Positions 1 to 44,454 of a DNA stretch of 64,000 bases are shown one piece after another. Origin of the DNA: Escherichia coli (lineage in GTDB: Bacteria; Pseudomonadota; Gammaproteobacteria; Enterobacterales; Enterobacteriaceae); NCBI RefSeq assembly GCF_011045215.1, contig NZ_CP049201.1; one strand, written 5' to 3'. Under the pieces are notes generated by a model. It ran no database searches and was not told the origin of the DNA. It saw only the letters and a list, made by a program, of their open reading frames with translations. Within the stretch, counting starts at the first letter, position 1. Each line of letters starts with the position of its first letter. Made by a program: the position numbers and the translations under genes.

Positions 1-1576
1 GGCGGATAAAAAGCTGCTCGAAAGCAGTTCGCTGGGCGGGCGTTTGCAGACGGAAACGCTCACTCACATCCGCGCCGTCTTCATCGTAATAGGTGATTTT
101 CAACCATTCGCCTTTCTCGTCGTGCCCATGCTGCAAAGACATGCCGCTACAGCGTAATACCAGCGCATCTTTCAGTCGTAGCGCCGCTTTTAACATATCA
201 TCCGGATCAACCAGTACCGTGTCACATTCGCGGCAGCGGCGAGCGGCAATATCATTTTCCGCGTTACATTGCGGGCAATTTTTAAAACGGAAACGGAAGT
301 CACACTGTTCGCGATGACCGTCGTCATCTTCAAACCATCCCTGACAGCGGCGACCAAAGTGTTCAATCAATGTCCCGTCGGCGGTCGTTTTCCCCCAAAA
401 GGTGTTGGCAAAACCGCAGGCAGGGCAGAAAACCTGTACCGGAACGTTGTCACTTTTGCCTTTCGGTGTACCAACTTCCGGCGCGTAGAGATCGTGAGGA
501 TTACCCGCATAATCAAGGATTAAACAATCAGTCTTGCCCGGAGCGAGACGCAGACCGCGCCCGACAATCTGTTGGTAAAGACTCACTGATTCGGTAGGGC
601 GCAGAATGGCGATAAGATCGACGTGCGGGGCGTCAAATCCGGTGGTCAGTACTGCGACGTTGACCAGATAGCGAAAACGCTGGGCTTTAAAATCTTCAAT
701 TAACACATCGCGCTCAGCGCCGGGGGTGTCGCCAGTAATCAGTGCAGCATCTTCGGCGGGTAGTAATCCCACAATCTCTTTTGCGTGTTCAACGGTGGCG
801 GCGAAAATCATCACCCCTTTGCGCGTTGCAGCAAACTCCATAATCTGGCTGATGATGTGCGGGGTAATACGTTGTTGTTTTTTTAGCTCGCGGTTGAGAT
901 CGGCTTCGCTGAACAGCCCATTACTCTGTGCCTGCAAGCGGCTGAAATCGTATTGCACTACTGGCATATCCAGTCGTTCTGGCGGCGTCAGATAGCCGTG
1001 TTTAATCATATAACGCAGCGGCAGCTCATAAATGCAGTCACGGAAAAGGGCTTTCTCATCGCCGCGTACCATGCCGTGATAATGGAACTGGTAGATCCAG
1101 CCTTTGCCCAATCGAAAAGGCGTGGCAGTCAGCCCCAGCAGGCGTAAGTGGGGATTCACTTTTGTCAGGTGAGTGAGGATTTGCTGATACTGGCTCTCTT
1201 CATCGTCACCAATACGGTGACATTCATCGACAATCAACAGCGAAAATTCACCCTGAAAGGCATCAAGATTACGGGCGACCGACTGCACGCTGCCAAATAC
1301 CACTTTACCGTGGCTCTCTTTGCGCTTTAGCCCGGCGGCAAAAATATCGGCTTCCAGCCCCAGCGCCTGATACTTTGCATGGTTTTGCGCCACCAGTTCT
1401 TTAACGTGTGCCAGCACCAGTACGCGACCACGAGCCAGCCGTGCCAGTTCCGCTATCACCAGGCTTTTACCTGCGCCGGTGGGCAGCACGATAACGGCAG
1501 GGGTTTTATGACGACGAAAATGGTTGAGCGTGGCATCCACGGCTTCTTGCTGATATGGGCGAAGTGTAAAAATCAT
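1..1576 (-). CDS. radD: ATP-dependent DNA repair helicase RadD (YejH); N-terminal ~525 codons, 3' end lies beyond window start
   Basis: Minus-strand ATG at 1576-1574; frame open to the window edge. Translation starts [17 protein letters not shown], with Walker A PTGAGKS and a DECH box (LLIVDECHR, read from reverse complement around 1230-1250). Not in the ORF track because there is no in-window stop. Confidence 0.85.
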
Positions 1577-1725
1577 GGTCTCGCGTAGGTAGATTATTCT
1601 GCTAATAGTATGCCACGGATCTTTTTCCCTTGAGGGATGTTATTAGACCGCTATACTGGGCAGACAACAGTTCAGATTTTCGGGTCATTACCCGACCTCC
1701 GTTTTTTACAGGCAAAATCACACAC

Positions 1726-2421
1726 ATGCGACTTGATAAATTTATCGCACAGCAACTCGGCGTTAGCCGTGCTATTGCCGGGCGTGAAATCCGCGGCAAT
1801 CGTGTCACCGTCGATGGCGAAATCGTCCGTAATGCAGCGTTCAAACTGCTTCCTGAACATGATGTCGCTTACGATGGCAACCCGCTGGCGCAGCAACACG
1901 GTCCACGTTACTTCATGCTCAATAAGCCTCAGGGCTATGTTTGCTCCACGGACGACCCTGATCACCCAACGGTGCTCTATTTTCTTGATGAACCAGTGGC
2001 GTGGAAACTGCACGCCGCAGGGCGGCTGGATATCGATACCACCGGTCTGGTGCTGATGACTGATGATGGTCAGTGGTCGCACCGCATTACTTCTCCGCGC
2101 CATCATTGCGAGAAGACCTATCTGGTGACGCTGGAATCACCCGTAGCTGACGATACGGCAGAGCAATTTGCTAAAGGCGTGCAGCTGCATAACGAAAAAG
2201 ATCTCACTAAGCCGGCGGTGCTGGAAGTGATTACCCCAACGCAGGTTCGTCTGACCATCAGCGAAGGGCGTTATCATCAGGTGAAACGCATGTTCGCCGC
2301 TGTGGGTAACCATGTGGTTGAGCTGCATCGTGAACGTATTGGCGGCATTACGCTGGATGCTGATTTAGCCCCCGGTGAATATCGTCCGTTAACTGAAGAA
2401 GAAATTGCCAGCGTCGCCTAA
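1726..2421 (+). CDS. rsuA: 16S rRNA pseudouridine(516) synthase RsuA
   Basis: ORF 1630..2421; internal ATG at 1726 gives the 231-aa product [16 protein letters not shown]... (S4 domain plus pseudouridine synthase core). Start chosen by match to the remembered RsuA N-terminus. Confidence 0.9.
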
Positions 2422-2448
2422 CTTTTCAATGACTTTCAGGAGCCCGTT

Positions 2449-3639
2449 GTGACCACCCGACAGCATTCGTCGTTTGCTATTGTTTTTATCCTTGGCCTGC
2501 TGGCCATGTTGATGCCGCTGTCGATTGATATGTATCTGCCCGCGCTACCGGTAATTTCAGCGCAGTTTGGCGTACCGGCGGGCAGTACGCAGATGACCCT
2601 CAGTACTTATATTCTGGGCTTTGCGTTGGGGCAGTTAATCTACGGGCCGATGGCAGACAGCTTCGGGCGTAAGCCGGTGGTTCTTGGCGGTACGCTGGTG
2701 TTTGCCGCCGCCGCGGTGGCGTGTGCGTTGGCACAAACCATCGATCAGCTGATTGTGATGCGTTTCTTCCACGGGCTGGCTGCGGCTGCGGCCAGCGTGG
2801 TTATCAACGCTTTGATGCGTGATATCTACCCGAAAGAAGAGTTCTCGCGGATGATGTCGTTTGTCATGCTGGTGACGACCATTGCACCGCTGATGGCACC
2901 GATAGTTGGCGGCTGGGTGCTGGTGTGGCTGAGCTGGCATTACATCTTCTGGATCCTCGCCGTGGCGGCGATTCTGGCTTCGGCAATGATCTTCTTTCTG
3001 ATCAAAGAAACCTTACCACCGGAGCGTCGCCAGCCTTTTCACATTCGTACCACTATTGGTAACTTTGCGGCGCTGTTCCGTCATAAGCGTGTCCTGAGTT
3101 ATATGCTGGCCAGCGGTTTCAGCTTTGCCGGGATGTTCTCGTTCTTAAGCGCCGGACCGTTTGTCTACATTGAAATTAACCACGTCGCGCCGGAAAACTT
3201 TGGTTATTACTTTGCACTAAACATTGTTTTCCTGTTCGTGATGACCATCTTTAATAGCCGCTTCGTCCGCCGTATTGGCGCGTTAAATATGTTCCGCTCG
3301 GGGTTGTGGATACAATTTATTATGGCAGCATGGATGGTCATCAGTGCGCTGCTGGGGCTGGGATTTTGGTCGCTGGTGGTTGGCGTTGCGGCGTTTGTGG
3401 GCTGCGTGTCGATGGTGTCATCCAATGCGATGGCGGTCATTCTTGATGAGTTTCCCCATATGGCGGGAACGGCATCTTCGCTGGCAGGAACCTTCCGTTT
3501 TGGCATAGGGGCAATTGTTGGCGCATTGCTTTCTCTTGCGACCTTTAACTCTGCATGGCCGATGATTTGGTCAATTGCATTCTGCGCAACCAGCTCCATT
3601 CTCTTCTGTCTGTACGCCAGTCGGCCGAAAAAACGGTGA
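2449..3639 (+). CDS. bcr: MFS multidrug efflux transporter Bcr (bicyclomycin/sulfonamide resistance)
   Basis: 396-aa ORF from a GTG start at 2449, preceded by SD-like caggag; highly hydrophobic 12-TM-like profile; matches remembered Bcr. Confidence 0.9.
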
Positions 3640-3971
3640 TCTATTGCACAACGAGGAAGCTAAAAGGCTTCCTTTGTTGATGCATGTCAACCACAAATCT
3701 ATCATTCCCCCGATATATGTTTATTTTATGTAAAATCAATTTATGTAAAAAGTCACATCATTGTAGTTAAAAAGGTTGAGTTAGATCGCAGAAACGGGTA
3801 CATATAGCCCCGCAAACGTGACCACGCCCGCAGATATTACTTAAATCAGAGCCATAGAGGCCACGCAGGCGAGGCATCAATCTTTACGATCTGTATAAAG
3901 ACGGATTGTTGATGATGTGTTAAAATTGATGTAAACAAATTGTGAAGTAAATGTGCTTCCGGGGAAAATAA

Positions 3972-4316
3972 GTGACTTCATTACAACTCTCAATCGTCCA
4001 TCGACTGCCGCAGAACTATCGCTGGTCTGCTGGTTTCGCAGGTTCGAAGGTTGAACCGATTCCGCAAAATGGACCGTGCGGTGACAACAGCCTGGTGGCG
4101 CTTAAATTGCTTAGCCCGGATGGTGATAATGCATGGTCGGTGATGTACAAACTAAGCCAGGCGTTAAGCGACATCGAAGTTCCATGTTCGGTGCTGGAGT
4201 GTGAAGGTGAGCCGTGCCTGTTTGTAAATCGCCAGGACGAGTTTGCTGCAACATGCCGATTGAAAAATTTTGGTGTGGCAATTGCCGAACCCTTTTCAAA
4301 CTACAATCCTTTTTAA
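3972..4316 (+). CDS. yejG: Uncharacterised protein YejG
   Basis: 114-aa ORF from a GTG start ([18 protein letters not shown]...); position between bcr and yejF as in E. coli. Confidence 0.8.
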
Positions 4317-4319
4317 GCG

Positions 4320-5909
4320 TCAGCTCAACGCCAGTAGCTGACGCGTATACTCCTGCTGCGGTGTGGCAAACACGCGCGCGCACGGTCCTTGTTCCACTAC
4401 TTCCCCTTGTCGCAGTACGATAACCTGATGACATAACGCGCGGACAACGTGCAAATCGTGGCTGATAAACAAATAGGCCAGTTGATGCTTTTGTTGCAAT
4501 GATTTCAATAGCGTCAATATTTGCGCCTGTACCGTTTTGTCGAGTGATGATGTCGGTTCATCAAGTATGATCAGCGAGGGCTTAAGAATTAATGCCCTGG
4601 CAATCGCAATACGTTGTCGCTGACCACCAGAGAACTCCGCCGGATAACGGTGGCGTGTTTCAGGATCTAATCCCACTTCATGCATCACGGCTATCACTTG
4701 TTGTTCGCGTTGTGCGGCAGAAAGCGTCGGCTGGTGAACCCGTAAGCCTTCCTCAATAATCTGCAAAACGTTGAGTCGTGGGTTGAGCGAGGAGTTTGGA
4801 TCCTGAAATACCACCTGAATGCGATGACGAATAGGTAACAGCTGGCGGCGATTTAAATTTTGCAGTGGCTGACCGTCAAAGATGATGCTGCCCTGAGAAT
4901 TAATCAGTCGCAGCAGCGCCAGTCCCGTCGTGCTTTTCCCGGAACCGGACTCGCCCACTAAACCCAGTGTTTCACCCGCTCGTAGCGTAAAACTGATGTT
5001 TTTCACCACCACATTATGATCCACAATGCGTTTCAAAATCCCTTTGCGAATGGGGAAGGCAACCTGAAGCTGTTCAACATCCAGCAACGTTGAGGCAGGT
5101 TCTGGCAACGGCACTGGATCGCCTGACGGTTCACTGTTGAGTAGCTTTTGTGTGTAAGGATGAGTGGGTGAGGCAAATAGCGTAGCGGCGTAATTTTGCT
5201 CGACACAGCGACCGTTTTGCATTACCGCCACGCGGTGGGCCAGTTTTCTGACAATGCTGAGGTTATGAGTAATAAACAGCATGCCCATATTCAACTCGCC
5301 TTGCAGTTCGCGCAACAGCTGTAAAATCTGCGCCTGGACAGAGACGTCCAGTGCGGTGGTCGGTTCATCGGCAATTAATAATTCCGGTCGCGTTAACAGC
5401 GCCATCGCAATCATCACCCGCTGGCGTTCGCCGCCGGAGAGCTGATGCGGATAATCTGTCAGCCGTTTTGCCGCCTGGCGGATACCAACGCGATCAAGGC
5501 AGTTAAGAATTTCGCCACGAGCCGCTTCCCGACGCATCCCGCGGTGGAGTGAAAGCACTTCATAAAGCTGTTTTTCCAGGGTATGCAATGGATTTAACGA
5601 CACCATCGGCTCTTGAAAAATCATGGCGATCTTATTACCGCGTACACCGCGCAACGTTTGGTCGCTGGCATGAAGCAGCGATTCGCCATGAAAACGAATA
5701 TCGCCGGAGAGATATTCAACCGGCGGGGAAGGGAGCAGGCGTAAAATTGACAGCGCGGTAACGCTTTTGCCTGAACCTGACTCACCCACCAGCGCCAGCG
5801 TTTCGCCAGCCTCAATCTGTAGTGAAACATCATTGACTACTGTACGTACGGTTTGCTGATGGCGAAAACCCACCGACAAATCTTCAATCGCTAACAGAGT
5901 TTGCGTCAT
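4320..5909 (-). CDS. yejF: ABC transporter ATP-binding protein YejF (two fused ATPase domains) of the YejABEF peptide/microcin C importer
   Basis: ORF 4320..5957; start assigned to the internal ATG at 5909 (MTQTLLAIEDLSVGF...), giving 529 aa. Two Walker A motifs (GESGSGKS twice) and two ABC signature motifs (LSGGERQR, FSGGQRQR). Confidence 0.9.
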   Translation of the reverse strand: MTQTLLAIEDLSVGFRHQQTVRTVVNDVSLQIEAGETLALVGESGSGKSVTALSILRLLPSPPVEYLSGDIRFHGESLLHASDQTLRGVRGNKIAMIFQEPMVSLNPLHTLEKQLYEVLSLHRGMRREAARGEILNCLDRVGIRQAAKRLTDYPHQLSGGERQRVMIAMALLTRPELLIADEPTTALDVSVQAQILQLLRELQGELNMGMLFITHNLSIVRKLAHRVAVMQNGRCVEQNYAATLFASPTHPYTQKLLNSEPSGDPVPLPEPASTLLDVEQLQVAFPIRKGILKRIVDHNVVVKNISFTLRAGETLGLVGESGSGKSTTGLALLRLINSQGSIIFDGQPLQNLNRRQLLPIRHRIQVVFQDPNSSLNPRLNVLQIIEEGLRVHQPTLSAAQREQQVIAVMHEVGLDPETRHRYPAEFSGGQRQRIAIARALILKPSLIILDEPTSSLDKTVQAQILTLLKSLQQKHQLAYLFISHDLHVVRALCHQVIVLRQGEVVEQGPCARVFATPQQEYTRQLLALS

Positions 5910-5910
5910 G

Positions 5911-6404
5911 CTACACCGCCTTATTAGGATCAAATGCGTCGCGGACGGCTTCACCAATAAAGATCAGCAAAGACAATAATATCGCCACCGACAAGAAGGC
6001 GGTGATCCCAAGCCACGGAGCCTGAAGGTTATTTTTCCCTTGTAACAGCAGTTCACCGAGTGACGGTGAACCGAGCGGCAGACCGAAGCCGAGGAAATCG
6101 AGTGAGGTCAGGGTGGTGATCGAACTACATAAAATAAACGGTAAAAAAGTGAGGGTAGCGACCATGGCATTTGGCAACATATGACGCAGGATGATACTGC
6201 GATCGCTGACGCCAAGCGCCTGCGCCGCACGAATGTAGTCGAAATTACGGGTACGTAAAAACTCCGCCCGCACCACGCCGACCAGACTCATCCAGCCAAA
6301 CAAGACAGTAATTGCCAGCAGCCACCAGAAGTTAGGCTGTACGACGCTGGAAAGTAAAATAATCAAAAACAGCGTCGGCATCCCCGACCATACTTCAATA
6401 AAGC
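5911..6404 (-). pseudogene. yejE: yejE remnant: only the C-terminal ~165 codons of the OppC/DppC-type permease, lacking its 5' half and native start
   Basis: The frame ending at 5911 encodes ...[23 protein letters not shown]...RAAQALGVSDRSIILRHMLPN...AVRDAFDPNKAV, i.e. the C-terminal TM region, EAA-loop region and C-terminus of an OppC-like permease. Upstream, the same frame runs into yejB-derived DNA. Expected intact length ~341 aa. The upstream boundary is approximate. Confidence 0.75.
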
Positions 6405-7031
6405 GTTGCCCAGGCCGCGTAGAGGGAACAGGTCGAAATAGCTGCCGCCCGCGAAGAAGACAATCAGCAGGATGGCAAACAAAAAGGCCGGAATGGCGTA
6501 GCCGATGATGATAAATGCGCTACTCCAGACGTCAAAGCGGCTCCCATTATAAACAGCTTTGCGAATGCCTAACGGAATCGACACCAGATAGATAATCAGC
6601 GTGCTCCACAATCCGAGGGTGATGGAAACCGGCAGGCTGTCTTTAATCAGCGTCAGCACCGAGGCGCTGCGAAACAGGCTGTCACCAAAATCAAAGCGAA
6701 TGTAGTCCCAAAGCATTTTGAAGTAACGTTCGTGGATCGGCTTATCGAAACCGTAGCGATGGGTGATCTCAGCGATCACTTCTGGATCTAACCCGCGTCC
6801 GCCACGGTAATTACTGTCGCTGATATTGCCGACGCCTGTTTGCGCATGGCTGGCACGAACGCCTTCACCGCCTGCGCCGGGTAATACTCCGGCATTACCA
6901 AACTCAATGGCGGCGATGGCCTGGTCGACCGGACCGCCAGGCGCAATTTGCACGATGAAAAAGTTGATAGTGATAATCGCCCATAACGTTGGGATCACCA
7001 GCAACAGACGGCGAATCAGATAAGCGCCCAT
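6405..7031 (-). pseudogene. yejB: yejB remnant: N-terminal ~207 codons of the DppB-type permease; the called ORF continues through a 15-codon out-of-frame tail to a stop at 6363
   Basis: ORF 6363..7031 starts [35 protein letters not shown]... and reads through ...[16 protein letters not shown], then [15 protein letters not shown]-stop. The DppB-type C-terminal half (EAA loop, TM5-6) is absent. Expected intact length ~364 aa. Confidence 0.75.
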
Positions 7032-8846
7032 CTACTCTCCCTGTTGTCTGGCTGACGGCAGTTTGGCCGCTTTATTAACATCATACCACCAGGTATCGAT
7101 ACCCAGACTGTAAACAGGGCGCACAGCGGGTTGGGAGAATTTATCCCACCAGGCGAGACGGTCTTCCGCCATGTACCACATTGGCAGCATGTAATAATTC
7201 CACGTTAATACGCGATCCAGTGCTCGCCCTAACGGCAGTAATTTTTCTTTATTTCCCTGCGCGGCAATAATTTGGTTGATCAGCGAGTCGATAACCGGGC
7301 TTTGCACGCCGGGGGCATTATAAGTGGAATTGATATATTCCGATGACCAGGAAATCTGTAAATCGGAACTGGGCCACGGCATCGCCCGCCATACGCGCGG
7401 CATCATATCATAGTCGCGACTGCGCATGCGGTTGGTGATTTGCGAGTTATCCACCTTGCGAATGTCCATGTTGATACCCAGCCGTTGCAGGCTGTGCTGG
7501 AACGGCAATACCCACTGACTATTGCTGCTTGCAGGAAGCAATAATTCAAAGCTGAGCGGCTGACCCGTAGTGGCATTAACGCGTTGCTGACCTTTCAGCA
7601 CCCAGCCCGCTTCGTTGAGAAGTTTGTCGGCTTTTAACAGGTTGTCACGATCGTAGCCATCGCCTTTCGATACCGGCGGCTGGTAGATTTGTGTGAAGAC
7701 TTCTGACGGTAGATCTTTTTTCATTGGTGCCAGAAGCACCAGCTCCGCGGCGTCAGGGTAATTTCTGGCCGCGTATTCGGTATTCTGAAAATAACTGTTC
7801 GTGCGACTCCAGGCATTGTAAAACAACGCCTTGTTCATCCATTCAAAGTCAAAGGCGAGGGTGATTGCTTCCCGGACCCGGCGATCGCTGAATACCGGAC
7901 GTTGGATATTAAACGCCAGCCAGCGCGTATCCTGGGCTGATTCGTTCTTTTGCTCATCTTTGATGATGTATCTTTTATCGAAATTTTTACCGGTATAACG
8001 CGTGGCCCAGTTTTTAGCGTCGTTTTCCATACGCAAATCAAAGGCACCTGCTTTAAACGCTTCAAAGGCGACATTATCATCGAGGTAATAATCGTAGCGA
8101 ATGGTGTCGAAATTCCAGCGTCCACGGTTTACCGGTAAGTTTGCTGCCCAGTAATCTTTCACGCGGGAATAGACAATATTTTGCCCCATTTTCCAGGACG
8201 TAATGCGGTACGGACCACTGGCAAGCGGAGGCGTGGCGAGCGGATCGCTAAGTTTCTGATCCTTCCAGTACTTTTCTGGAAATACCGGCAGCGAAAACAG
8301 ACTCAACATATCTTCTTTGCCGGGTTTAGCTAACTCAATGCGCACGGTTAACGGCGCAATGGCTTTGACGGTGGTGCCTTTGTAGACCAGACGAAATTGC
8401 GGCACGCCTTCGGTCATAAATTTTTGAAAAGTAAACTCTACATCGCGGGCAGTAATGGGCGAACCATCATGAAAACGGGCGCGCGGATTAATAGCGACCT
8501 CCACCCAGGAATAATCGTCAGCATAGCGTGCACTTTCAGCAATCAGCGGGTAATAACTGCCTGGTTCGTCATCGGAAGTCGTAAATAGCGTGTCGTACAG
8601 CTGCTCGGTGCGTGCGCCCGGGTTGCCGCGCAGTGCATAGCGGTTGAAATTATCGAAGGTACCGAGGGCTGACAACGTTATCTGCCCACCTTTTGGCGCG
8701 GCGGGGTTCACATAATCAAAATGGTTGAAATTAAACGCGTACCGGGGTTCGCCCAGCACGGCAAAGGCATAGCTTTCCTTGATAGCCTGCGCCTGCGCAC
8801 CAAAGGTGAACAGAGCGATAAACAGCAGCAGTATGCGCACAATCAT
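7032..8846 (-). CDS. yejA: Periplasmic oligopeptide/microcin C-binding protein YejA (ABC transporter substrate-binding protein)
   Basis: ORF 7032..8852 (606 aa); likely start two codons in (MIVRILLLFIALFTFGAQA, a signal peptide), giving 604 aa. SBP family 5 features. Confidence 0.9.
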   Translation of the reverse strand: MIVRILLLFIALFTFGAQAQAIKESYAFAVLGEPRYAFNFNHFDYVNPAAPKGGQITLSALGTFDNFNRYALRGNPGARTEQLYDTLFTTSDDEPGSYYPLIAESARYADDYSWVEVAINPRARFHDGSPITARDVEFTFQKFMTEGVPQFRLVYKGTTVKAIAPLTVRIELAKPGKEDMLSLFSLPVFPEKYWKDQKLSDPLATPPLASGPYRITSWKMGQNIVYSRVKDYWAANLPVNRGRWNFDTIRYDYYLDDNVAFEAFKAGAFDLRMENDAKNWATRYTGKNFDKRYIIKDEQKNESAQDTRWLAFNIQRPVFSDRRVREAITLAFDFEWMNKALFYNAWSRTNSYFQNTEYAARNYPDAAELVLLAPMKKDLPSEVFTQIYQPPVSKGDGYDRDNLLKADKLLNEAGWVLKGQQRVNATTGQPLSFELLLPASSNSQWVLPFQHSLQRLGINMDIRKVDNSQITNRMRSRDYDMMPRVWRAMPWPSSDLQISWSSEYINSTYNAPGVQSPVIDSLINQIIAAQGNKEKLLPLGRALDRVLTWNYYMLPMWYMAEDRLAWWDKFSQPAVRPVYSLGIDTWWYDVNKAAKLPSARQQGE

Positions 8847-8927
8847 CTGCAACGGATTTCCTTTTACTCATCATTAGCCGCAATCCGGCATGCTTTCACT
8901 ATGAATAATAAGGGACGTAAGCACACC

Positions 8928-10484
8928 TTACCACTGCGGCGTATACGGTTTCTTCAGCCAGCGGACAAAATCGTCCAGCGGTAACGGGCGACTAATCCAG
9001 TAGCCTTGCATGAAATTAACGCCGCGTTCGCTTAGCCATCGCGCCTGTTCCGGCGTTTCGACCCCTTCAGCAACCGTCAGCATATTGAGGCGTTTCGCCA
9101 GCGTCAGCACCGCGTCAAGTACGGGTGAAGTGATCGTTTCCGTACCGATGGCGTTGATAAATCCACGGTCAATTTTCAGATAATCGAGCGTAAAACGCTC
9201 AAGATAGATAAGCGCGCTGTGCCCGGTGCCGAAGTCATCAATAGCAATTTCTACGCCGACCGAGTGCAGCCAGGCGAAGAGTTGTGTGGCTTCTTGCTCT
9301 TTCAGCATATCGCGCTCGGTAATTTCCAGCACAATCTGGAAATGGTGTGCGGGTAGGGAAGTGAGCAGTTTCTGGATATCTGCTTTAAAGCTTTCGCTGT
9401 GCAGATGGTCCGGCGCAATGTTAATACCAAATTTGACGCCTACCGGCAGCACTTTTTCTAATTCTGCGGCATCGCGGGCAATTAACTCAAACAGGTGCTG
9501 AGTCAGCGGCACAATCATCTTTTGCGATTCGGCAAAGTTAATGAAGGCATCCGGGGGAATTTCTCCCGCGACAGGATGCCGCCAGCGTAGCAGTACTTCC
9601 AGGCCCGTTACTCGCAAAGCTTGTGTATCCACCACCGGTTGATACGCCACGTAAAATTGTTCGCGCTTGATGGCGGTCATAATTTCTCTGCCGGGGCGCA
9701 TACGTACGCTCATCAGGTAATAGCAGAGCAGGCCAACGACAGTTCCACTCATGCCGCCCAGTAAAAATGCGTACCACACATCGTTCCATGTCCAGTCATC
9801 TGCATAAAGCCGAACGGTCAGAGGAATGCCCGCAATTTTAGTTTCACGGACTGGCATGTCGGTTAATTCATTAACGTTCATCAAACGTGAAGAAAAGGTA
9901 GATAGCGCAGTATTGCCAATAATGAGGGCGACGCCATCGTAATCTTCCTGCCGTGAACTATAAAAGAGTGAAGGCGTCAGGTTGAGATTCAGAGCGGCAA
10001 AGACGCCGCTATTTTTCAGCAAAGGGTTGCGATACCAGATGACGATTGCGGGTTTGTTCGGCACCATCGGCGTGCCGGGTAAGATCGCCATATCGACATT
10101 TTTATTAATGTCGAGCGCAGGAATCAATTCATTGAGTGGAATGTCCATCTCACCGGTCGCAGATGAACAGAATGTTTTTTTATCTTTCACCAGCACAAAC
10201 GTACGGACATTCATGCTAAACGCCGCGCGGGCGGTCAGTTCGGGGTTAGCCTGCTGGCAGGTATCTAAGGTCAGCGGCTGAAGCCGGTCAGTAGTGGATT
10301 TCAGGTCGGCAAAATAGGTATCGAGATACTTTTGTACGTCGGTAATCAGTGTGTCGTATTTGACTTCGTGCTTATGCCAGGCCACCAAAAACTGAAGGCA
10401 GCTCACCAGTATCGCAATCATTACGCCTGCAACAATGCAGGTAAGCAGGAGCTTACGTCCAGAATTGGGAGCGCGTATGAACAT
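8928..10484 (-). CDS. rtn: c-di-GMP phosphodiesterase Rtn/PdeN (membrane-anchored EAL domain protein)
   Basis: 518-aa ORF; N-terminal TM segment, periplasmic region, second TM, C-terminal EAL domain (EITERD, DDFGTGHS motifs). Confidence 0.9.
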   Translation of the reverse strand: MFIRAPNSGRKLLLTCIVAGVMIAILVSCLQFLVAWHKHEVKYDTLITDVQKYLDTYFADLKSTTDRLQPLTLDTCQQANPELTARAAFSMNVRTFVLVKDKKTFCSSATGEMDIPLNELIPALDINKNVDMAILPGTPMVPNKPAIVIWYRNPLLKNSGVFAALNLNLTPSLFYSSRQEDYDGVALIIGNTALSTFSSRLMNVNELTDMPVRETKIAGIPLTVRLYADDWTWNDVWYAFLLGGMSGTVVGLLCYYLMSVRMRPGREIMTAIKREQFYVAYQPVVDTQALRVTGLEVLLRWRHPVAGEIPPDAFINFAESQKMIVPLTQHLFELIARDAAELEKVLPVGVKFGINIAPDHLHSESFKADIQKLLTSLPAHHFQIVLEITERDMLKEQEATQLFAWLHSVGVEIAIDDFGTGHSALIYLERFTLDYLKIDRGFINAIGTETITSPVLDAVLTLAKRLNMLTVAEGVETPEQARWLSERGVNFMQGYWISRPLPLDDFVRWLKKPYTPQW

Positions 10485-10664
10485 GATTCCGTTAATTTCC
10501 TGAAATTACGACAACATTTAAAAGATAACAATGACCGGACTATAGCCTGGATCAAGACGCGGAAACATCATTTTCTCTGATGAATGAAAACAAAAAAGCA
10601 CTGCCTAAGCAGTGCTTTCAGTTAACTCGTCAGGATAGCCAAGGGATTGCATCCAAACGGTTTA

Positions 10665-11231
10665 TTAGCTGCGGCTGAGAACCCGGCGTGCTTCGTTGTA
10701 ACGCTTCTTCCAGTACGGTTCATTCATGCTGGAAATAATAACACCACTGCTGGTGGAAGCATGGACAAACTGATTGTTGCCGATATAAATACCGACATGG
10801 CGTCCCGTTGAACCGGCACGGAACAGAACTAAATCACCCGTACGCAAATTACTGCGAGAAACAGATTTACCCATTTCCTGCTGTTCGTAAGTCGAACGCG
10901 GAAGTTCTAAGCCAAATTGCTCACGGAATGTACGTTGTACAAAACCAGAACAATCGATACCTTTTTTAGTGCTACCGCCCAGACGATAACGTACGCCTTT
11001 CCAGTCAGCATACTGATCCATAATTCGCGATTTTACGTCGACATTACGAACCAGGTTTTCAAATTCATCCTGAGAAGCTTGCAGTGATGATGTTTCACTA
11101 CCCACTGCACGTGTCTCAGGATGCATATTCTTTGCGGTGTTATTTGCACTACATGCAGAAAGCAGAACCGCTACTGCAATCGCGGGGATCCCGCGCAAGA
11201 TATATCTCAAAATCGGTTGAGATTTGACCAT
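10665..11231 (-). CDS. mepS: Peptidoglycan DD-endopeptidase/LD-carboxypeptidase MepS (Spr), NlpC/P60 lipoprotein
   Basis: 188-aa ORF with lipoprotein signal (LLSACS) and NlpC/P60 catalytic region (GIDCSGFVQ ... HVGIYIG). Confidence 0.92.
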
Positions 11232-11642
11232 GTTGTTTGTTTTCCCTTGAAGTCCTTAACGACAAATATCGTTATAAAAAAATGCCAAGCGACACGAGAC
11301 TAATTACCTGGGCATGTTGAAACAATTCCTTAAGGCCAAATCTGTGGACTAACGCACAAAATTATATGCTGTGAGGATAATCTACCGCCGAGGCAAAACG
11401 AGTTCGAGATTACCCGATTGGTGCGGTCTTGGCGAGCGGTTTTACATGATTTTTTATAAGAAAAAGTGATACAGAAAGTTAATAAGCGGGATTGGTCAAT
11501 TAAAGTACGATTGAGTGAAATGCATGCAATCCATTCATTTACTTAGAGAATGATTTTTGCGTTCGATGGATGAAAGCACGGTGCGCATCATCAGGATTAT
11601 CCTCACTATAAAAATAAACCTGATGATGTTAATTACTGTGAG

Positions 11643-12356
11643 TTATTTGTTTTGGAAATGTTTGTTTTTTCCCGGTAGTGATTTGTCAAAAAAGGTGATT
11701 AATCGATCACTTAATGGCGTCAGCAACACCCAGGGCAAACCGATCAATATCACGGTCATCGAACCGACAATGATGTCAGTAAACCAGTGTGCGCCAATCA
11801 TTACTCTGGGAAACGCAAAAACCACAAAAATAATAAGGGCGATAAGACCTGCAACTTTGCCGAAATAACGCCACATGAATGCCGAAAAAATAAGCAGCAT
11901 CATGCCGTGATCGCCGGGAAAGCTATCTCGTGAGGCATCTTTCGTGGGGACAGAGAGCAGTTCGCTGACGCGGTTAATATCGGCAAAAGTCAATGTTGGG
12001 CTGGCCCGTTTTACAGGAATTAATGCCTGACCCAGCTGGTTTAATACCACTGCAGTTAATAGCATGACCAGACCAATAATCACGATACGTCGTCTGCCTG
12101 GGGCGTTTTCTTTCAGCCAGAAACTCAGCATCAACATACCCATCGCCAGCAGTGAACAACCGTCGAAGGCGCGATTGTTGGTCAATGCAACCAGCCACAA
12201 AAAGGCCTTACTTTCGACCAGTTTCTGATTAAAGAAATAAAAAATATCCGCATCAATCGGCAACCAGAATCCATGATTAACGGGAATATACCAGGAAAGA
12301 AACAGCGCGAGGCCGACAATATTCAACAACACTATTTGCGGCAAATTTTTAATCAT
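11643..12356 (-). CDS. lpxT: Lipid A 1-diphosphate synthase LpxT (YeiU), PAP2 family
   Basis: ORF 11643..12392; start assigned to the internal ATG (MIKNLPQIVLLN...), giving 237 aa; polytopic membrane protein. Confidence 0.85.
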   Translation of the reverse strand: MIKNLPQIVLLNIVGLALFLSWYIPVNHGFWLPIDADIFYFFNQKLVESKAFLWLVALTNNRAFDGCSLLAMGMLMLSFWLKENAPGRRRIVIIGLVMLLTAVVLNQLGQALIPVKRASPTLTFADINRVSELLSVPTKDASRDSFPGDHGMMLLIFSAFMWRYFGKVAGLIALIIFVVFAFPRVMIGAHWFTDIIVGSMTVILIGLPWVLLTPLSDRLITFFDKSLPGKNKHFQNK

Positions 12357-12394
12357 ATTTTCTCTAATTATCTTACTGAAAAACGCAGGCAACC

Positions 12395-13381
12395 TTACGC
12401 GGTAGTCGCTAAACGAAGCTTCAACAGCGCGCTCTGCAAAGCATTCCAGTCAGCTTCGCTGCTGGAAATCAGCTCAATACGACTGTCCGGTGGCGCAACG
12501 TTTTGCGTTTCAATGTGCAGGTCATCGCCCTGACGGTTGATTCGCACCAGCCCTTCGGGAATACGCAGCACGCCTTTGACGCGCTCCACCGGTGCAAGTC
12601 GCGCCCATTCCAGAATGCCAATGGTGTCGAATACCGTATCAGCGTCGAATATCCAGCCGCAGGCCTGATGTCCTTGTCCACTGTTCAGACTGCGACGCCA
12701 GCGTTGATGCTCTGGCAGGCTTAACGCTGCTAACCCTTTTTTCACGACATGCTGATGAGAATGCGCGGCGCTGGCGGGCAACTCGGCTAAATTGCGACGC
12801 GGCAAATCCAGAAGATGACCGTCAACTTTCCCATGCTCACTGTGAATTAATTGCCGATCGCCACCATTTTGCTGCCACCAGCGCTGTAGCGCTTGCTCGC
12901 TTTCAGGTGTCGCACGGTCGGATTTATTGGCGACAATGATGTCTGCGGCAGCCAGCTGGTCACGGAAGTTTTCATTGCTGGCGCTTTTTTCGTCCAGCAG
13001 CAGGCGTGGATCGAGAATGCACAACGTGGCGCGTAGATCTATCCACGGTTCATAGACTGGTGCGGTTAAGAGATCGAGGATCTGTTTCGGATGGCCCAGC
13101 CCGGTCGGCTCTATCAACAAGCGGTCTGGTTTTCCCTGACGCAGTAAGGTATTCAACCCTACCTGCATGGGTAAACCATTAACGCAGCACATGCAGCCGC
13201 CGGGGATCTCTTTCAGCAGTGCGCCGCTATCGGCGAGCAAAGCACCATCAATTCCGACTTCCCCAAATTCATTAACCAGTACCGCCCATTTTTCGTTGGG
13301 ATCTTTATGGGCTAACAGATGAAGAATCGACGTGGTTTTCCCGCTGCCGAGAAAACCGGTGATGAGGTTGGTCCTGGTCAC
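12395..13381 (-). CDS. yeiR: Zinc-binding GTPase YeiR (CobW/COG0523 family)
   Basis: 328-aa ORF with P-loop GFLGSGKTT and CxCC metal motif (GGCMCCV). Confidence 0.88.
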   Translation of the reverse strand: MTRTNLITGFLGSGKTTSILHLLAHKDPNEKWAVLVNEFGEVGIDGALLADSGALLKEIPGGCMCCVNGLPMQVGLNTLLRQGKPDRLLIEPTGLGHPKQILDLLTAPVYEPWIDLRATLCILDPRLLLDEKSASNENFRDQLAAADIIVANKSDRATPESEQALQRWWQQNGGDRQLIHSEHGKVDGHLLDLPRRNLAELPASAAHSHQHVVKKGLAALSLPEHQRWRRSLNSGQGHQACGWIFDADTVFDTIGILEWARLAPVERVKGVLRIPEGLVRINRQGDDLHIETQNVAPPDSRIELISSSEADWNALQSALLKLRLATTA

Positions 13382-13498
13382 AACGGCTCCGCAATACTCT
13401 GGTAAGTTAACTGAGCGTTAATCCTGGCTAAAAACGGCAGAAAAGAGAAGAGGAGAGCGGACGAAGGCGAGCTTCATCCGCTTTAACCGCAGAAATCG

Positions 13499-14965
13499 TT
13501 AAATTTTGAGGGTATTTAATAGCGCCTGATGCGCGCCGAATTGTGCGATTTGTTGCCAGGCTTGTTCGATGGCCTGCACAAAATGCGGGTTATCTGGCAG
13601 ATCATCACCGAAAACTTCACGCAGGGAAAGCAGGGCGGTGACGCGTTGCTCACTGCTGCTGCCCGCAACAAGATCGCGAATTTTATCGCTAAGCGGATCG
13701 CGAACATCAATGGCATTTCCGGCATCATCAACGCCGCTGACGTAACGCATCCAGCCTGCAACGCCTAATGCCAGCAACGACCAGTCCGTTTCGCGCCCCA
13801 GATGTATGCGAATACCTGCCAGCATGCGTTGCGGTAATTTCTGGCTGCCATCCATCGCGATTTGCCAGGTCTTATGTTTCAGCGCCGGATTAGCAAAACG
13901 TGCAATTAACTTATCCGCATATTGTGTTAAATCGACATCTTTAATCCGCAGTGTCGGCGCTTGCTCATCCAGCATTAATGTTCTGGCGGCATGGCGAAAT
14001 GCGCGATCCTGCATGCAATCACTGATATGGGCGAATCCTGAGAGGTAACCCAGATAAGCGAGAAAAGAGTGGCTGCCATTAAGCATCCGCAGTTTCATCT
14101 CTTCCCATGGCAGGACATCATTCACCATTTGTACACCTGCGACTTCCCAGGCAGGACGCCCAGCGACGAAGTTATCTTCCACCACCCACTGGATAAACGG
14201 TTCGCAGCTAATCGCGCAGGGATCATTCACCCCCAGATGCTGGCTGATTTCCGCCAGTGATTCGTTGGTTGCTGCCGGAACAATGCGGTCGACCATAGTT
14301 CCCGGAAAACTGACGTGCTCTTTTATCCACCCGGCGAGTTCTGGCGAACGTTTTTCTGCCATTCCCAGCACCGCGTTTTTCACCACATGGCCATTGTCGG
14401 GAATATTGTCACAGGAGAGCACGGTAAACGGTGTAAGGCCGCGCTCACGGCGGCGTTTCAGTGCTTCGACGAGAATACCCGGTGCGGAGTGAGGTTCTTC
14501 AGGGGTTTGTAGATCGTGAATAATCCGCGGATTGCTGGTGTCGAGTGCACCGGTGGCCGGGTCAATACAATAGCCTTTTTCGGTAATCGTCAGGGAAACA
14601 ATTGCCACCTGTGGCTCGCAAAATTTCTCAATAATTGCCGCTAAGGAATCCAGTTTTGCATTCAGGCATTCGTGAACGGCACCGACAATTATCGCCTGAT
14701 TGCCGTCCGCCCCTTTCTCCAGCACGGTGTATAAATGGTTCTGTGCGCGGAGCTGGCTCATCAGTTGATCACCGCTGAACAAGCTGATTTCACAGATCCC
14801 CCAGTCGCCGCCCTGGGCATTCAGCACACGATCGGTCAGTAACGCCTGATGAGCGCGGTGAAAGGCTCCAAAGCCAAAATGAACGATACGTGATTGCAAC
14901 TGCTGGCGATCGTAGCGTGGAGCGTGTACATGATGCGGGAGCGTAACGGAGGCGATTGTATTCAT
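13499..14965 (-). CDS. yeiQ: Putative NAD-dependent polyol/mannonate-type dehydrogenase YeiQ (mannitol dehydrogenase family)
   Basis: ORF 13499..14974; Rossmann-like N-terminus (VHFGFGAFHRAHQA); about 488 aa from the internal ATG. Confidence 0.85.
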   Translation of the reverse strand: MNTIASVTLPHHVHAPRYDRQQLQSRIVHFGFGAFHRAHQALLTDRVLNAQGGDWGICEISLFSGDQLMSQLRAQNHLYTVLEKGADGNQAIIVGAVHECLNAKLDSLAAIIEKFCEPQVAIVSLTITEKGYCIDPATGALDTSNPRIIHDLQTPEEPHSAPGILVEALKRRRERGLTPFTVLSCDNIPDNGHVVKNAVLGMAEKRSPELAGWIKEHVSFPGTMVDRIVPAATNESLAEISQHLGVNDPCAISCEPFIQWVVEDNFVAGRPAWEVAGVQMVNDVLPWEEMKLRMLNGSHSFLAYLGYLSGFAHISDCMQDRAFRHAARTLMLDEQAPTLRIKDVDLTQYADKLIARFANPALKHKTWQIAMDGSQKLPQRMLAGIRIHLGRETDWSLLALGVAGWMRYVSGVDDAGNAIDVRDPLSDKIRDLVAGSSSEQRVTALLSLREVFGDDLPDNPHFVQAIEQAWQQIAQFGAHQALLNTLKI

Positions 14966-15187
14966 AGGAGTCACGTCTTAGTAACGATTAATTAACAACG
15001 ACAGTGTAAAGTTATATGACAGCAATTGAAATTGGTCTGGATTGTTAATGCGATGAAGTGTGAGGACGATCAATCAACGAGTGAATATTGCGGGCGTAAG
15101 GTGTTCAGGAAGCGCAAAATAGAAGATTGGTATAATAAATCAAAAAAGGGACAGCCTGAGCTATCCCTTTTCTGCCTGCGGCTGAAG

Positions 15188-15760
15188 TTAGTCAGCACGC
15201 CCCATATAACGGCGTTCTTCGATATGGATACGAATTTTTTCGCCCGGGCTTAAGTATTCTGGTACCTGAATCACCAGACCAGTGCTCAATGTCGCCGGTT
15301 TGTTACGGGCGCTGGCAGATGCCCCTTTGATGCCTGGTGCGGTTTCAACGATTTCCAGATCAACGGTCTGCGGCAGCTCAAGCGCCAGCAGTTGACCGTC
15401 CCAGGTCAGCACCTGCATGTCCGGCATGCCGCCTTCTGGCATAAACAGCAACTCTTCTTCAATCTGATCTTTGGTGAAGGTATACGGGGTATAGTCTTCT
15501 TTATCCATAAAGACATATTCGTTACCATCGACATAGGAGAAGTCAACGTAACGGCGGGTCAGCGTCACGGTGTCAACGATATCATCACCTTTGAAACGCT
15601 CTTCTACTTTCAGCCCGGTACGGACATCAGAAAAACGCATTTTGTACAGCGTAGCGGCACCGCGGGCAGTGGGCGACTGAATATCAATGTCCTTAACCAG
15701 TAGCAGTTTGCCGTTGTAATTCAGTACCATACCTTTTTTAATTTCGTTCGCTCTTGGCAT
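15188..15760 (-). CDS. yeiP: Elongation factor P-like protein YeiP (EfpL)
   Basis: ORF 15188..16015 carries an in-frame 5' extension; start assigned at ATG 15760-15758 ([20 protein letters not shown]...), giving 190 aa with EF-P fold signatures. Rho-independent terminator-like hairpin just downstream (~15150-15185). Confidence 0.9.
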
Positions 15761-15914
15761 CGAAAAATTCCTGTAGTCGAAAATGTCAAAAATATCGCGA
15801 CAAAGTACTCGCGACGGGCCTTTCGGGCAAGTGGTATTCGCACTTTTGCTGGTGCAAAAAAGGTGGTACTGTGCGCGCACATCAATCCGGTGGTTAACCT
15901 TAAGAGAATAACGT

Positions 15915-16169
15915 ATGGAATGCCGTCCGGGTTGCGGGGCGTGTTGCACTGCCCCTTCAATTTCCAGCCCTATTCCCGGTATGCCAGATGGCAAGCCCGC
16001 CAATACGCCCTGCATTCAGCTTGATGAACAGCAACGCTGTAAAATTTTCACCTCGCCACTGCGGCCGAAAGTCTGTGCAGGCTTACAAGCCAGCGCTGAA
16101 ATGTGCGGTAACTCGCGTCAGCAGGCAATGACCTGGCTTATCGATCTGGAAATGCTGACCGCGCCTTAA
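15915..16169 (+). CDS. yeiW: Cysteine-cluster protein YeiW (UPF0153 family)
   Basis: 84-aa ORF, Cys-rich (CRPGCGACC ... C ... C), in the conserved position between yeiP and setB. Confidence 0.8.
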
Positions 16170-17347
16170 ACATCTTTAATCCGCAGTAAGCAAAACAGAG
16201 TGGCGATAATCATCACCATCGCAAACCAGAACACAGCGTGATAATTCCAGATCTCGGCGACGATGCCCGCCACTGATCCTGCGATGATCCAGCCCACGCG
16301 CGACGTGTTGGTATAGAGCGTGGTGGCTGAACCTGCCTGACCGGGCATCAAATCCTGAAAATAGAGCATCCCGATGCCGCCCAGAATGCCAATAAAAATA
16401 GCATTTAGCAGCTGCAAGCCCAACAGAATGGCAGGTGAATGCGCCATCAGCATTCCTGCGTAAAAACAGACGCCACCCACGGCGGCAACGCGCATTAAGA
16501 AGCGCTTACCCAGACGTTTGGCAAAATATCCGGCAATCAACATGGTCGGGATTTCCAGCCCGGCGGCGGTCCCCATCATCACACCGGCCAGTTTCTCGGG
16601 AAGATGCAGTTCGTTGATAATAAATAGCGGCATGTTGATGATGTACAGGCTGTTCGAGCCCCACATCAATGTACAAATGACAAACAGCAGCAGCGTATCG
16701 CGACGGTTACGGCGCGGCGCTTCAACCGTGCCGGTCGCCAGCGGAAGCTCTTTTTGCATCGACGGTAAAAACAGCCACACCATCACGCCGCAAACAATAA
16801 ATGCTACCGCTGCGCTCAGATACATTACCGTAAAGCTGAAACCCATCGCTAAGGCATAAGCCAGCGGTGGGCCAATGACCCATGCCAGTGAAACCTGAGC
16901 GCGTAAAAAAGAGCTGAACATCACCGCCTCACGTCCGGTTTTGTCGGCATGTTCACGGGCAAGGGCAAACATTTGCGGGTTAGCGGTCGAGCCAAAGCTG
17001 CTAAGAAAGACGCCAACGAATAGCAAAACAAAGTAGTTGCGATTCCAGGCAAAAAGGGTGCAGGCCAGCACGCTTAACAGGCAGCAAAAGACAATCAGCG
17101 ATTTGCGATCGCCGCGCTTATCAGAGCGCCCGGCGAGAAACTGACTCACCAGAATCCCAATGACAGCGCTGCCGGTAAAGAAGAATCCCACCATCGCCGG
17201 ACGGGCATGTACTTCATCGGTAAGAAAAATACTGAGTGTCGGGGTTTGCAGAGCGCCCGCAATACCGGTGAGAAAGGCAACGATTAAAAACGCCGTCGAG
17301 GTCAGGTCAAACGATTTCGCGCTGGAGACTGCGGGGGAGTTATGCAT
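16166..17347 (-). CDS. setB: Sugar efflux transporter SetB (MFS)
   Basis: 393-aa hydrophobic ORF, MFS topology; divergent from fruB. Confidence 0.88.
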
Positions 17348-23782: not shown

Positions 23783-23875
23783 TTTCTGACGGGCAGAAAG
23801 CCGTCGCCCGTACTCATCAAACATACCAAAACCTGGCGCTGACGCCGGGTTTACTGGCATGAAGGGAAAATCATT

Positions 23876-25126
23876 ATGGACATAATGAGAAGTGTTGTGG
23901 GGATGGTGGTGTTACTGGCAATAGCATTTCTGTTGTCGGTAAATAAAAAGAGCATCAGTTTGCGCACGGTTGGAGCCGCACTGCTGCTGCAAATCGCTAT
24001 TGGTGGCATCATGCTCTATTTTCCGCCGGGAAAATGGGCTGTAGAACAGGCGGCATTAGGCGTTCATAAAGTGATGTCTTACAGTGATGCCGGTAGCGCC
24101 TTCATTTTTGGTTCGCTGGTCGGGCCGAAAATGGATGTCCTCTTTGACGGTGCGGGTTTTATCTTCGCCTTTCGCGTACTCCCGGCGATTATCTTCGCCA
24201 CTGCGCTCATTAGTCTGCTGTACTACATTGGCGTGATGGGGCTGCTGATTCGCATCCTTGGCAGCATTTTCCAGAAAGCCCTCAACATCAGCAAAATCGA
24301 ATCTTTTGTTGCGGTTACCACTATTTTCCTCGGGCAAAATGAGATCCCGGCGATCGTTAAACCGTTTATCGATCGCATGAATCGCAACGAGTTGTTTACC
24401 GCAATTTGTAGCGGGATGGCGTCCATTGCGGGTTCGATGATGATTGGTTATGCCGGAATGGGCGTACCAATTGACTACCTGTTGGCGGCATCGCTGATGG
24501 CGATCCCCGGCGGTATTTTGTTTGCACGTATTCTTAGTCCGGCAACCGAGCCTTCGCAGGTCACATTTGAAAATCTGTCGTTCAGTGAAACGCCGCCAAA
24601 AAGCTTTATCGAAGCGGCGGCGAGCGGTGCGATGACCGGGTTGAAAATCGCCGCCGGTGTGGCGACGGTGGTAATGGCGTTTGTCGCAATTATTGCGCTG
24701 ATTAATGGCATTATCGGCGGAATTGGCGGCTGGTTTGGTTTTACCAATGCTTCTCTGGAAAGTATTTTTGGCTATGTGCTGGCACCGCTGGCGTGGATCA
24801 TGGGTGTGGACTGGAGTGATGCCAACCTTGCGGGTAGCCTGATTGGGCAGAAACTGGCGATTAACGAATTCGTCGCTTACCTGAGTTTCTCCCCATACCT
24901 GCAAACGGGCGGTACGCTGGAAGTGAAAACCATTGCGATTATCTCCTTTGCGCTTTGTGGTTTTGCTAACTTTGGTTCTATCGGTGTTGTCGTTGGGGCA
25001 TTTTCGGCTATTTCGCCAAAACGTGCACCGGAAATCGCTCAGCTTGGTTTACGGGCGCTGGCAGCAGCAACGCTTTCCAACCTGATGAGCGCGACCATTG
25101 CCGGGTTCTTTATTGGTTTAGCTTGA
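23876..25126 (+). CDS. psuT: Nucleoside (pseudouridine) transporter PsuT (YeiM), NupC/CNT family
   Basis: 416-aa polytopic ORF; paralogous to nupX in this window (mostly identical alignment by eye). Confidence 0.88.
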   Translation: MDIMRSVVGMVVLLAIAFLLSVNKKSISLRTVGAALLLQIAIGGIMLYFPPGKWAVEQAALGVHKVMSYSDAGSAFIFGSLVGPKMDVLFDGAGFIFAFRVLPAIIFATALISLLYYIGVMGLLIRILGSIFQKALNISKIESFVAVTTIFLGQNEIPAIVKPFIDRMNRNELFTAICSGMASIAGSMMIGYAGMGVPIDYLLAASLMAIPGGILFARILSPATEPSQVTFENLSFSETPPKSFIEAAASGAMTGLKIAAGVATVVMAFVAIIALINGIIGGIGGWFGFTNASLESIFGYVLAPLAWIMGVDWSDANLAGSLIGQKLAINEFVAYLSFSPYLQTGGTLEVKTIAIISFALCGFANFGSIGVVVGAFSAISPKRAPEIAQLGLRALAAATLSNLMSATIAGFFIGLA

Positions 25127-26963: not shown

Positions 26964-27062
26964 GTGTTGATAACAAGCCGGGCCGGTATCGCAAGATGCA
27001 GGCCTGGCTATTTCTGATGGGCAGAAAGCCGTCGCCCAATATGACATGAAGAGATAATCACT

Positions 27063-28313
27063 ATGGATGTCATGAGAAGTGTTCTGGGAATGGTGGTATT
27101 GCTGACGATTGCGTTTTTACTGTCAGTAAACAAGAAGAAGATCAGCCTGCGTACCGTTGGCGCGGCGTTAGTGTTACAGGTCGTGATTGGCGGCATTATG
27201 CTTTGGTTACCGCCAGGGCGTTGGGTCGCTGAAAAAGTCGCTTTTGGCGTGCATAAAGTGATGGCGTACAGCGACGCGGGTAGCGCATTTATCTTCGGTT
27301 CTCTGGTCGGACCGAAAATGGACACCTTATTTGATGGCGCAGGATTTATCTTTGGTTTCAGAGTATTACCGGCAATTATCTTCGTCACCGCGCTGGTGAG
27401 TATTCTCTATTACATCGGTGTGATGGGGATCTTAATTCGCATTCTCGGCGGTATCTTCCAGAAAGCATTAAATATCAGCAAGATCGAGTCATTCGTCGCG
27501 GTCACTACCATTTTCCTCGGGCAAAACGAAATTCCGGCAATCGTCAAACCCTTTATCGATCGGCTGAATCGCAATGAATTATTTACAGCGATTTGTAGTG
27601 GCATGGCCTCAATTGCCGGTTCGACAATGATTGGTTACGCCGCACTGGGCGTACCTGTGGAATATTTGCTGGCGGCATCGTTAATGGCGATCCCAGGCGG
27701 GATCTTGTTTGCCCGCCTGTTAAGCCCGGCTACGGAATCTTCGCAGGTTTCTTTTAATAACCTCTCTTTCACCGAAACACCGCCAAAAAGCATTATTGAA
27801 GCCGCCGCGACAGGGGCAATGACCGGGCTGAAAATCGCTGCGGGTGTGGCAACAGTGGTGATGGCATTTGTTGCCATCATTGCGTTAATTAACGGTATTA
27901 TCGGCGGCGTTGGCGGCTGGTTTGGTTTTGAACATGCCTCGCTGGAGTCCATTTTAGGTTATCTGCTGGCCCCACTGGCGTGGGTAATGGGTGTTGACTG
28001 GACTGATGCGAATCTTGCCGGGAGTTTGATTGGACAGAAACTGGCAATAAATGAATTTGTCGCTTATCTCAATTTCTCACCCTATCTGCAAACGGCTGGC
28101 ACTCTGGATGCTAAAACCGTGGCGATTATTTCCTTCGCGTTGTGCGGTTTCGCTAACTTTGGTTCTATCGGGGTGGTGGTGGGGGCGTTTTCTGCGGTTG
28201 CGCCACACCGTGCGCCGGAAATCGCCCAGCTTGGTTTACGCGCGCTGGCGGCGGCGACACTTTCTAACCTGATGAGTGCCACCATTGCCGGGTTCTTTAT
28301 TGGTTTAGCGTAG
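27063..28313 (+). CDS. nupX: Nucleoside transporter NupX (YeiJ), NupC/CNT family
   Basis: 416-aa ORF, collinear paralogue of psuT (MDVMRSVLGMVVLL... versus MDIMRSVVGMVVLL...). Confidence 0.88.
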   Translation: MDVMRSVLGMVVLLTIAFLLSVNKKKISLRTVGAALVLQVVIGGIMLWLPPGRWVAEKVAFGVHKVMAYSDAGSAFIFGSLVGPKMDTLFDGAGFIFGFRVLPAIIFVTALVSILYYIGVMGILIRILGGIFQKALNISKIESFVAVTTIFLGQNEIPAIVKPFIDRLNRNELFTAICSGMASIAGSTMIGYAALGVPVEYLLAASLMAIPGGILFARLLSPATESSQVSFNNLSFTETPPKSIIEAAATGAMTGLKIAAGVATVVMAFVAIIALINGIIGGVGGWFGFEHASLESILGYLLAPLAWVMGVDWTDANLAGSLIGQKLAINEFVAYLNFSPYLQTAGTLDAKTVAIISFALCGFANFGSIGVVVGAFSAVAPHRAPEIAQLGLRALAAATLSNLMSATIAGFFIGLA

Positions 28314-44400: not shown

Positions 44401-44454
44401 TATGATTGTGGTCCGCATTCGGTCATAAACGCACATAACATCATGATCTGTGTG

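Follow-up and report, generated by a model that had tools for sequence, protein, structure and literature searches.

A probably spontaneous 999-bp deletion across yejB and yejE, predicted to abolish the YejABEF importer in a strain of Escherichia coli

The yej operon of the E. coli strain analysed here lacks 999 bp that span the junction of its two permease genes, yejB and yejE. We consider it highly probable (roughly 0.9) that this is a spontaneous, scarless deletion that took place recently in this lineage and would abolish the YejABEF importer. The window, by which we mean the whole 64-kb stretch of DNA that was analysed, is an E. coli chromosome segment reaching from radD to yehY, and its ORF map places pdeN-yejA-yejB'-yejE'-yejF on the minus strand. 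Judged from its sequence, the yej locus in this segment is a decayed, non-functional member of the YejABEF operon kind, because YejB is cut after residue 207 and YejE is without residues 1-176 and out of frame.

Layout of the yej locus

The gene order yejA-yejB-yejE-yejF between pdeN and yejG was established from the ORF map and from collinearity with annotated E. coli loci. The upstream neighbour pdeN (8928..10484, minus strand, 518 aa) is intact and fixes the chromosomal context, and the convergent downstream neighbour yejG (3972..4316, plus strand, 114 aa) is intact as well. The periplasmic substrate-binding protein is encoded by yejA (7032..8846, minus strand), an intact ORF of 604 aa with a Pfam SBP_bac_5 domain. 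This exact protein is on record (WP_158121256.1/QIF13004.1) and differs from the YejA of E. coli PapM-32-1 at four amino acids, with no stops. The double-cassette ABC ATPase gene yejF (4320..5909, minus strand, 529 aa) is likewise intact and holds two ABC_tran domains; it shows two amino-acid differences from the reference and no internal stops, and the exact YejF protein is present on 620 contigs. An intact SBP_bac_5 YejA and an intact two-cassette YejF, as expected of a YejABEF operon, are therefore both in place, but the two complete BPD_transp_1 permeases, with six transmembrane (TM) segments and a coupling loop, are not.

The yejA stop and the yejF start are separated by 1,121 bp, an interval that the first-pass annotation had put at ~1.12 kb. 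Its assignment of the genes in this interval to yejB and yejE agrees with the RefSeq annotation of homologous loci, and its description of yejA and yejF as undecayed is borne out by the full-length ORFs and the exact protein records. The interval is filled by two remnants. The truncated permease ORF yejB' (6363..7031, minus strand) encodes 222 aa starting with MGAYLIRR... and consists of native codons 1-207 at 7031-6411, followed by 15 out-of-frame codons that derive from yejE sequence and by a TGA at 6365-6363. Its protein is YejB up to ...FDLFPLRGL, after which a 15-residue foreign tail leads to the stop. The remnant yejE' (5911..6409, minus strand) begins with the final base of codon 176 and continues through codons 177-341 to the stop codon; it lies in a frame different from that of yejB', and the native start, TM1 and TM2 are absent. 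The longest ORF in the yejE' frame begins at an ATG at 6381, located 16 nt upstream of the yejB' stop, and covers 5911-6381 (156 aa) with the C-terminal end ...AVRDAFDPNKAV, which is the YejE C-terminus. The yejF ATG follows 1 nt past the yejE stop.

The deletion and its junction

As an intact comparator we used the E. coli locus L004 (GCA_009766295.1, contig WSGD01000001.1), which was reached by an exact look-up of the YejA protein and which carries full-length yejB (364 codons) and yejE (341 codons). The window and L004 are 99.98% identical, with three substitutions in 12.8 kb and one gap. This gap measures exactly 999 bp (L004 8438-9436, a placement that is ambiguous by 2 nt). In the window the junction lies at 6409..6411 (minus strand), with the 999 bp absent between 6410 and 6409 according to both a base-by-base comparison with L004 and BLAST. 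The deletion has its endpoints in codon 208 of yejB (phase 1) and codon 176 of yejE (phase 2). It removes the 3' 157 codons of yejB (208-364) together with the 5' 176 codons of yejE (1-176), and what is left over corresponds to YejB residues 1-207 and YejE residues 177-341. The length of 999 bp is a multiple of three, yet the yejE remainder is out of frame, because the native yejB and yejE genes are read in different frames, with a 1-nt overlap.

The same gap is also seen against two more distant E. coli. Moreover, a 2,201-bp query of the locus had matches in 5,425 of the 5,426 complete E. coli genomes, and the top matches listed consist of two pieces spanning ~3,200 bp; therefore ~1 kb is absent from the window. 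Being a deterministic structural difference, the deletion is not a matter to which a chance expectation applies.

The flanks of the deletion read ...GGCCTGG-TTTCC on the left and ...CTGGGG-GCAACG on the right, where the hyphen marks the break (window 6411/6410 and 6409). When both registers were compared, a 2-nt GG microhomology was found at the junction (6411-6410), the BLAST pieces overlapped by 2 nt and the number of inserted bases was zero. A CTGG common to both flanks was considered as the deletion register and rejected, since the observed break lies in another register. Native yejB and yejE bases account for all of the junction sequence, which contains no FRT, lox or IS scar, and the base-by-base comparison revealed neither a residual recombinase scar of 34 bp or ~80 bp nor a cassette. 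No repeats or palindromes were found at the deletion endpoints. An extra 1-nt mismatch or indel that appeared at the junction against the distant reference L001 turned out to be a synonymous GGA/GGG polymorphism, and it is gone in the comparison with L004.

The first-pass annotation had expected that alignment to a reference locus would give a single ~1.0 kb gap, and the one clean 999-bp gap against L004 is of this kind, with codon numbers that match the predicted loss of yejB codons ~208-364 and yejE codons 1-~176. The out-of-frame junction with a 15-codon tail that it described is found again both in the ORFs and in the junction comparison, and its failure to see an FRT/loxP-like scar is consistent with a junction free of inserted bases. 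It had also named a finding that would overturn its reading, namely that yejB and yejE are genuinely short in this lineage; this is excluded by L004, with its 364 and 341 codons.

Among other E. coli records there are YejB variants of 235-236 aa that enter the same alternative frame (...PLTLIRCRGIRKSPIICGISRCRCWRQ) at approximately codons 205-210. These variants switch frame right by the left breakpoint of the window, and one of them (BBU82545.1) belongs to a complete genome. They may represent genuine frameshift alleles or, alternatively, sequencing errors in a homopolymer.

Age and isolation of the lesion

By sequence comparison, the deletion postdates a very recent common ancestor, because a relative only three SNPs away has an intact locus. 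The earlier suggestion that the lesion is probably recent thus gains a firm footing, since over 12.8 kb this relative carries both genes intact. Two further large contigs with an identical YejA were collapsed with L004 because most of their neighbouring proteins are the same.

Over its entire 64 kb, from radD to yehY, the window is collinear with E. coli PapM-32-1, and only two other structural differences between them were observed, one in the copy number of a tandem array and the other a 1-nt indel in the radD-rsuA spacer. Approximately 55 further genes were mapped in the 64 kb; all have their full length and show few amino-acid changes, and the yej lesion is therefore isolated and recent. 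The product of radD has 586 aa, as called on an identical contig of the Logan assembly described below.

Shigella-like or general genome decay had been suspected from a best identity to E. coli of 99.0-99.4%. We rejected it, since the 64-kb window contains no IS elements and the other genes are intact. The closest relatives of the window are named E. coli or "Enterobacteriaceae bacterium TzEc077", which also weighs against Shigella.

Two genes of the window stand out in the comparison with PapM-32-1. In mglA (window 41854-43374) there are 56 nucleotide differences, with two amino-acid changes, and in osmF (61955-62872) there are 37 nucleotide differences, while most genes near them show 0-10. 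These patches of divergence suggest recombination mosaicism.

Rarity of the allele and origin of the deletion

The junction sequence occurs in none of the 5,426 complete E. coli genomes, in none of the GTDB species-representative genomes (one per species) and in none of the JGI metagenome contigs. The set of complete genomes is one without this strain, the best identity to the window being 99.0%, or 99.4% over 25 kb. In 5,422 of the 5,426 complete E. coli genomes, at least 80% of the deleted 999 bp is present, which puts large lesions at ~0.07%, and the yej locus is therefore strongly conserved. Besides the two genomes with yej deletions that are compared at the end of this text, the segment is covered in part in one more complete genome and not at all in another.

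The clean junction, with at most a short microhomology and no mobile element, is what a spontaneous deletion should leave behind. The 999 bp may have been lost by illegitimate recombination or replication slippage with only 2 nt of microhomology.

Could such a deletion have been selected in the wild, by microcin C-like compounds of competitors or as the self-protection of a producer? Adaptive loss of this kind would refine the reading as a spontaneous deletion, and we regard it as possible but doubtful. Spontaneous resistance to Trojan-horse antibiotics arises almost exclusively through loss of a transporter, at a frequency of 10^-4 to 10^-5 (PMC8323819), and transporter loss being the main route of resistance against Trojan-horse inhibitors speaks for selection. 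So does the existence of at least three independent natural deletions in the yej permease genes with yejF spared. On the other hand, such lesions are very rare, with about 4 of the 5,426 complete genomes being without much of the segment, and the allele is private to one strain. Loss of YejABEF has moreover been reported to lower virulence (PMC8323819), and a drop in virulence argues for purifying selection and for a transient or neutral event. The rarity and the private distribution argue against strong recurrent selection.

A deliberate scarless laboratory deletion, made for example with lambda-Red or CRISPR counter-selection, is in our view very unlikely. It would agree with the lack of extra bases at the junction, but the endpoints fall in mid-codon inside both genes and leave an out-of-frame stub, unlike an engineered design. 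The allele sits in a sparsely sampled lineage of E. coli rather than in a laboratory strain, no complete RefSeq genome being more than 99.4% identical to it, and comparable natural deletions are known in other isolates.

Presence of the allele in a second assembly

The exact 222-aa product is recorded once, in the Logan assembly of SRR11014969, which comes from the same strain. A short-read Logan contig of 45 kb from this run matches window 1-17031 with 100% identity, junction included, and both the 222-aa and the 156-aa products are called on it. The contig stops inside a 116-bp tandem array (~window 44,480) that the window reads through; the two assemblies were therefore made differently, yet they agree.

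These observations make it extremely unlikely that the allele is an assembly artefact or a minority variant, with full-length yejB and yejE in all or part of the real population. The sole other record of the allele does come from one sequencing run, plausibly of the same isolate and maybe even from the same reads. However, two differently made assemblies show the same bases throughout 17 kb, and the deleted segment is unique sequence with no end repeat that could mislead an assembler. A mixed population, in turn, would normally break the contig at a bubble, whereas this contig runs for 45 kb through the junction.

The tandem array at which the Logan contig stops occupies the mglC-preA spacer (window 44437-44864). 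It is built from a 116-bp REP/BIME-like unit in 3.7 copies with 98% identity and holds three full-length matches to Rfam naRNA4 (RF02564). In PapM-32-1 it apparently has two units fewer.

Loss of the permeases

According to Pfam, the BPD_transp_1 domain covers residues 152-359 of intact YejB and residues 158-338 of intact YejE, and ~27% of the YejB domain is left in the window. A hydropathy scan gives six TM segments for each intact permease. By the same measure the YejB stub retains TM1-3, while TM4-6 and the cytoplasmic TM4-TM5 coupling loop are gone. In the YejE remnant TM3-6 are left, and the start codon and TM1-2 are gone. The cytoplasmic loop between TM4 and TM5 contacts the ATPase in permeases that depend on a binding protein. 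YejABEF is almost certainly null in this strain, because an ABC importer of this kind depends on having both membrane subunits complete.

After the deletion the operon would be expected to yield an intact YejA, a 222-aa YejB stub with TM1-3, a fragmentary or untranslatable YejE C-terminus with TM3-6 and an intact YejF. Expression of yejF is probably lowered by polarity, because translation in the native frame has been lost over the ~450 nt that precede it. For annotation, the 222-aa and 156-aa ORFs are best handled as pseudogene fragments.

That the hybrid still works, through a ribosomal frameshift at the yejB' stop (five T's precede it in TGT TTT TGA, window ~6371-6363, and a -1 slip would enter the yejE frame) or through reinitiation at the in-frame ATG 6381, 16 nt upstream of that stop, to give a chimeric or split permease, has only the slimmest chance, since any product would be without YejB TM4-6 and the coupling loop and without YejE TM1-2, the joining of YejB after TM3 (periplasmic side, by hydropathy) to YejE before TM3 (cytoplasmic side) would be topologically inconsistent, and no strong Shine-Dalgarno sequence stands ahead of ATG 6381.

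Predicted phenotype of the deletion

In E. coli, microcin C crosses the inner membrane through the importer YejABEF (PMC10924461). Deletion of any single yej gene leads to microcin C resistance according to Novikova et al. (2007, J Bacteriol 189:8361), as that study is cited in PMC10924461, and the same passage backs the earlier statement that YejABEF loss is a known route to such resistance. Because YejABEF is almost certainly disabled, and in line with these published deletion genetics, the strain is expected to be resistant to microcin C and to related peptide-nucleotide "Trojan horse" antibiotics. Yej-dependent oligopeptide uptake is expected to be lost in the strain, and losing YejABEF may be costly to it in the host.

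Should this prediction hold, the strain would be a naturally Yej-null E. coli that resists microcin C and has a near-isogenic yej+ relative. Such a pair could serve to measure the fitness cost or benefit of YejABEF loss outside the laboratory.

Other features of the window

Several further features were noted in the segment. The gene mdtQ (window 52635-54071) is a full-length ORF of 478 aa, as it is in PapM-32-1; in K-12 MG1655 it is a pseudogene. The genes psuT and nupX (window 23855-25122 and 27042-28309) encode paralogous nucleoside transporters of the NupC family, and with ~79% DNA identity they cross-match in BLAST. An Rfam Peptidase-S11 RNA motif (RF03039, 72.8 bits) at 56439-56519 sits directly in front of pbpG (56524-57456), where such a leader is expected.

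Comparison with other yej loci

Knockout or transposon mutants of yejB or yejE in K-12 have likewise lost a membrane subunit of YejABEF. In contrast to these laboratory mutants, the allele of the window is natural and scarless and hits both permease genes in one event, so that YejB is left as a truncated ORF and YejE as a remnant in a shifted frame.

Two other isolates provide closer parallels. In E. coli razor3 (NZ_CP176051.1) an independent deletion also crosses the yejB/yejE boundary, with 1 nt of microhomology and with yejA and yejF intact, and its right endpoint lies 8-10 nt from that of the window. The razor3 deletion is ~641 bp long and in frame (L005 2450-3928), giving a 492-aa YejB(1-329)::YejE(180-341) fusion, whereas the deletion in the window is 999 bp long and out of frame. 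The 492-aa "yejB" of razor3 in RefSeq is thus a deletion fusion and not a genuine permease. In E. coli 47258 (NZ_CM135147.1) there is again a natural deletion that inactivates the importer, and the 3' part of yejE is kept together with an intact yejF. This deletion takes yejA, yejB and approximately the first 138 codons of yejE, and unlike in the window yejA is gone. Its remnant is a 612-nt yejE pseudogene directly after pdeN (L008 5000-5611), which PGAP describes as N-terminally incomplete.

In all three deletions, those of the window, razor3 and 47258, yejF is spared and the right endpoints fall within ~120 bp of each other in yejE. In view of the way the cases came to light, this coincidence is weakly suggestive at best; its rough post hoc probability is near 1%. 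One might read it as recurrent deletion of the yej permeases, selected by peptide-nucleotide antibiotics or host peptides, with a common breakpoint-prone stretch of yejE (codons ~139-180) and with yejF spared. We consider this unlikely. If it were true, it would imply a local deletion hotspot, or else selection that keeps YejF expressed for a role other than transport.

A single, probably spontaneous and recent event in this lineage would account for the allele when it is set against intact yejABEF (b2177-b2180; GCA_009766295.1, PapM-32-1). The pdeN-yejABEF-yejG-bcr context is the same, and the intact relatives share the window's YejA exactly and its flanking DNA almost exactly. The intact operon encodes a YejB of 364 aa and a YejE of 341 aa with six TM segments each, and the window differs by the 999 bp missing across both. 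The allele has not been described before, but it is no new kind of system and raises no new question about YejABEF: it is an ordinary loss of function, specific to one strain, in a transporter that is already well characterised.
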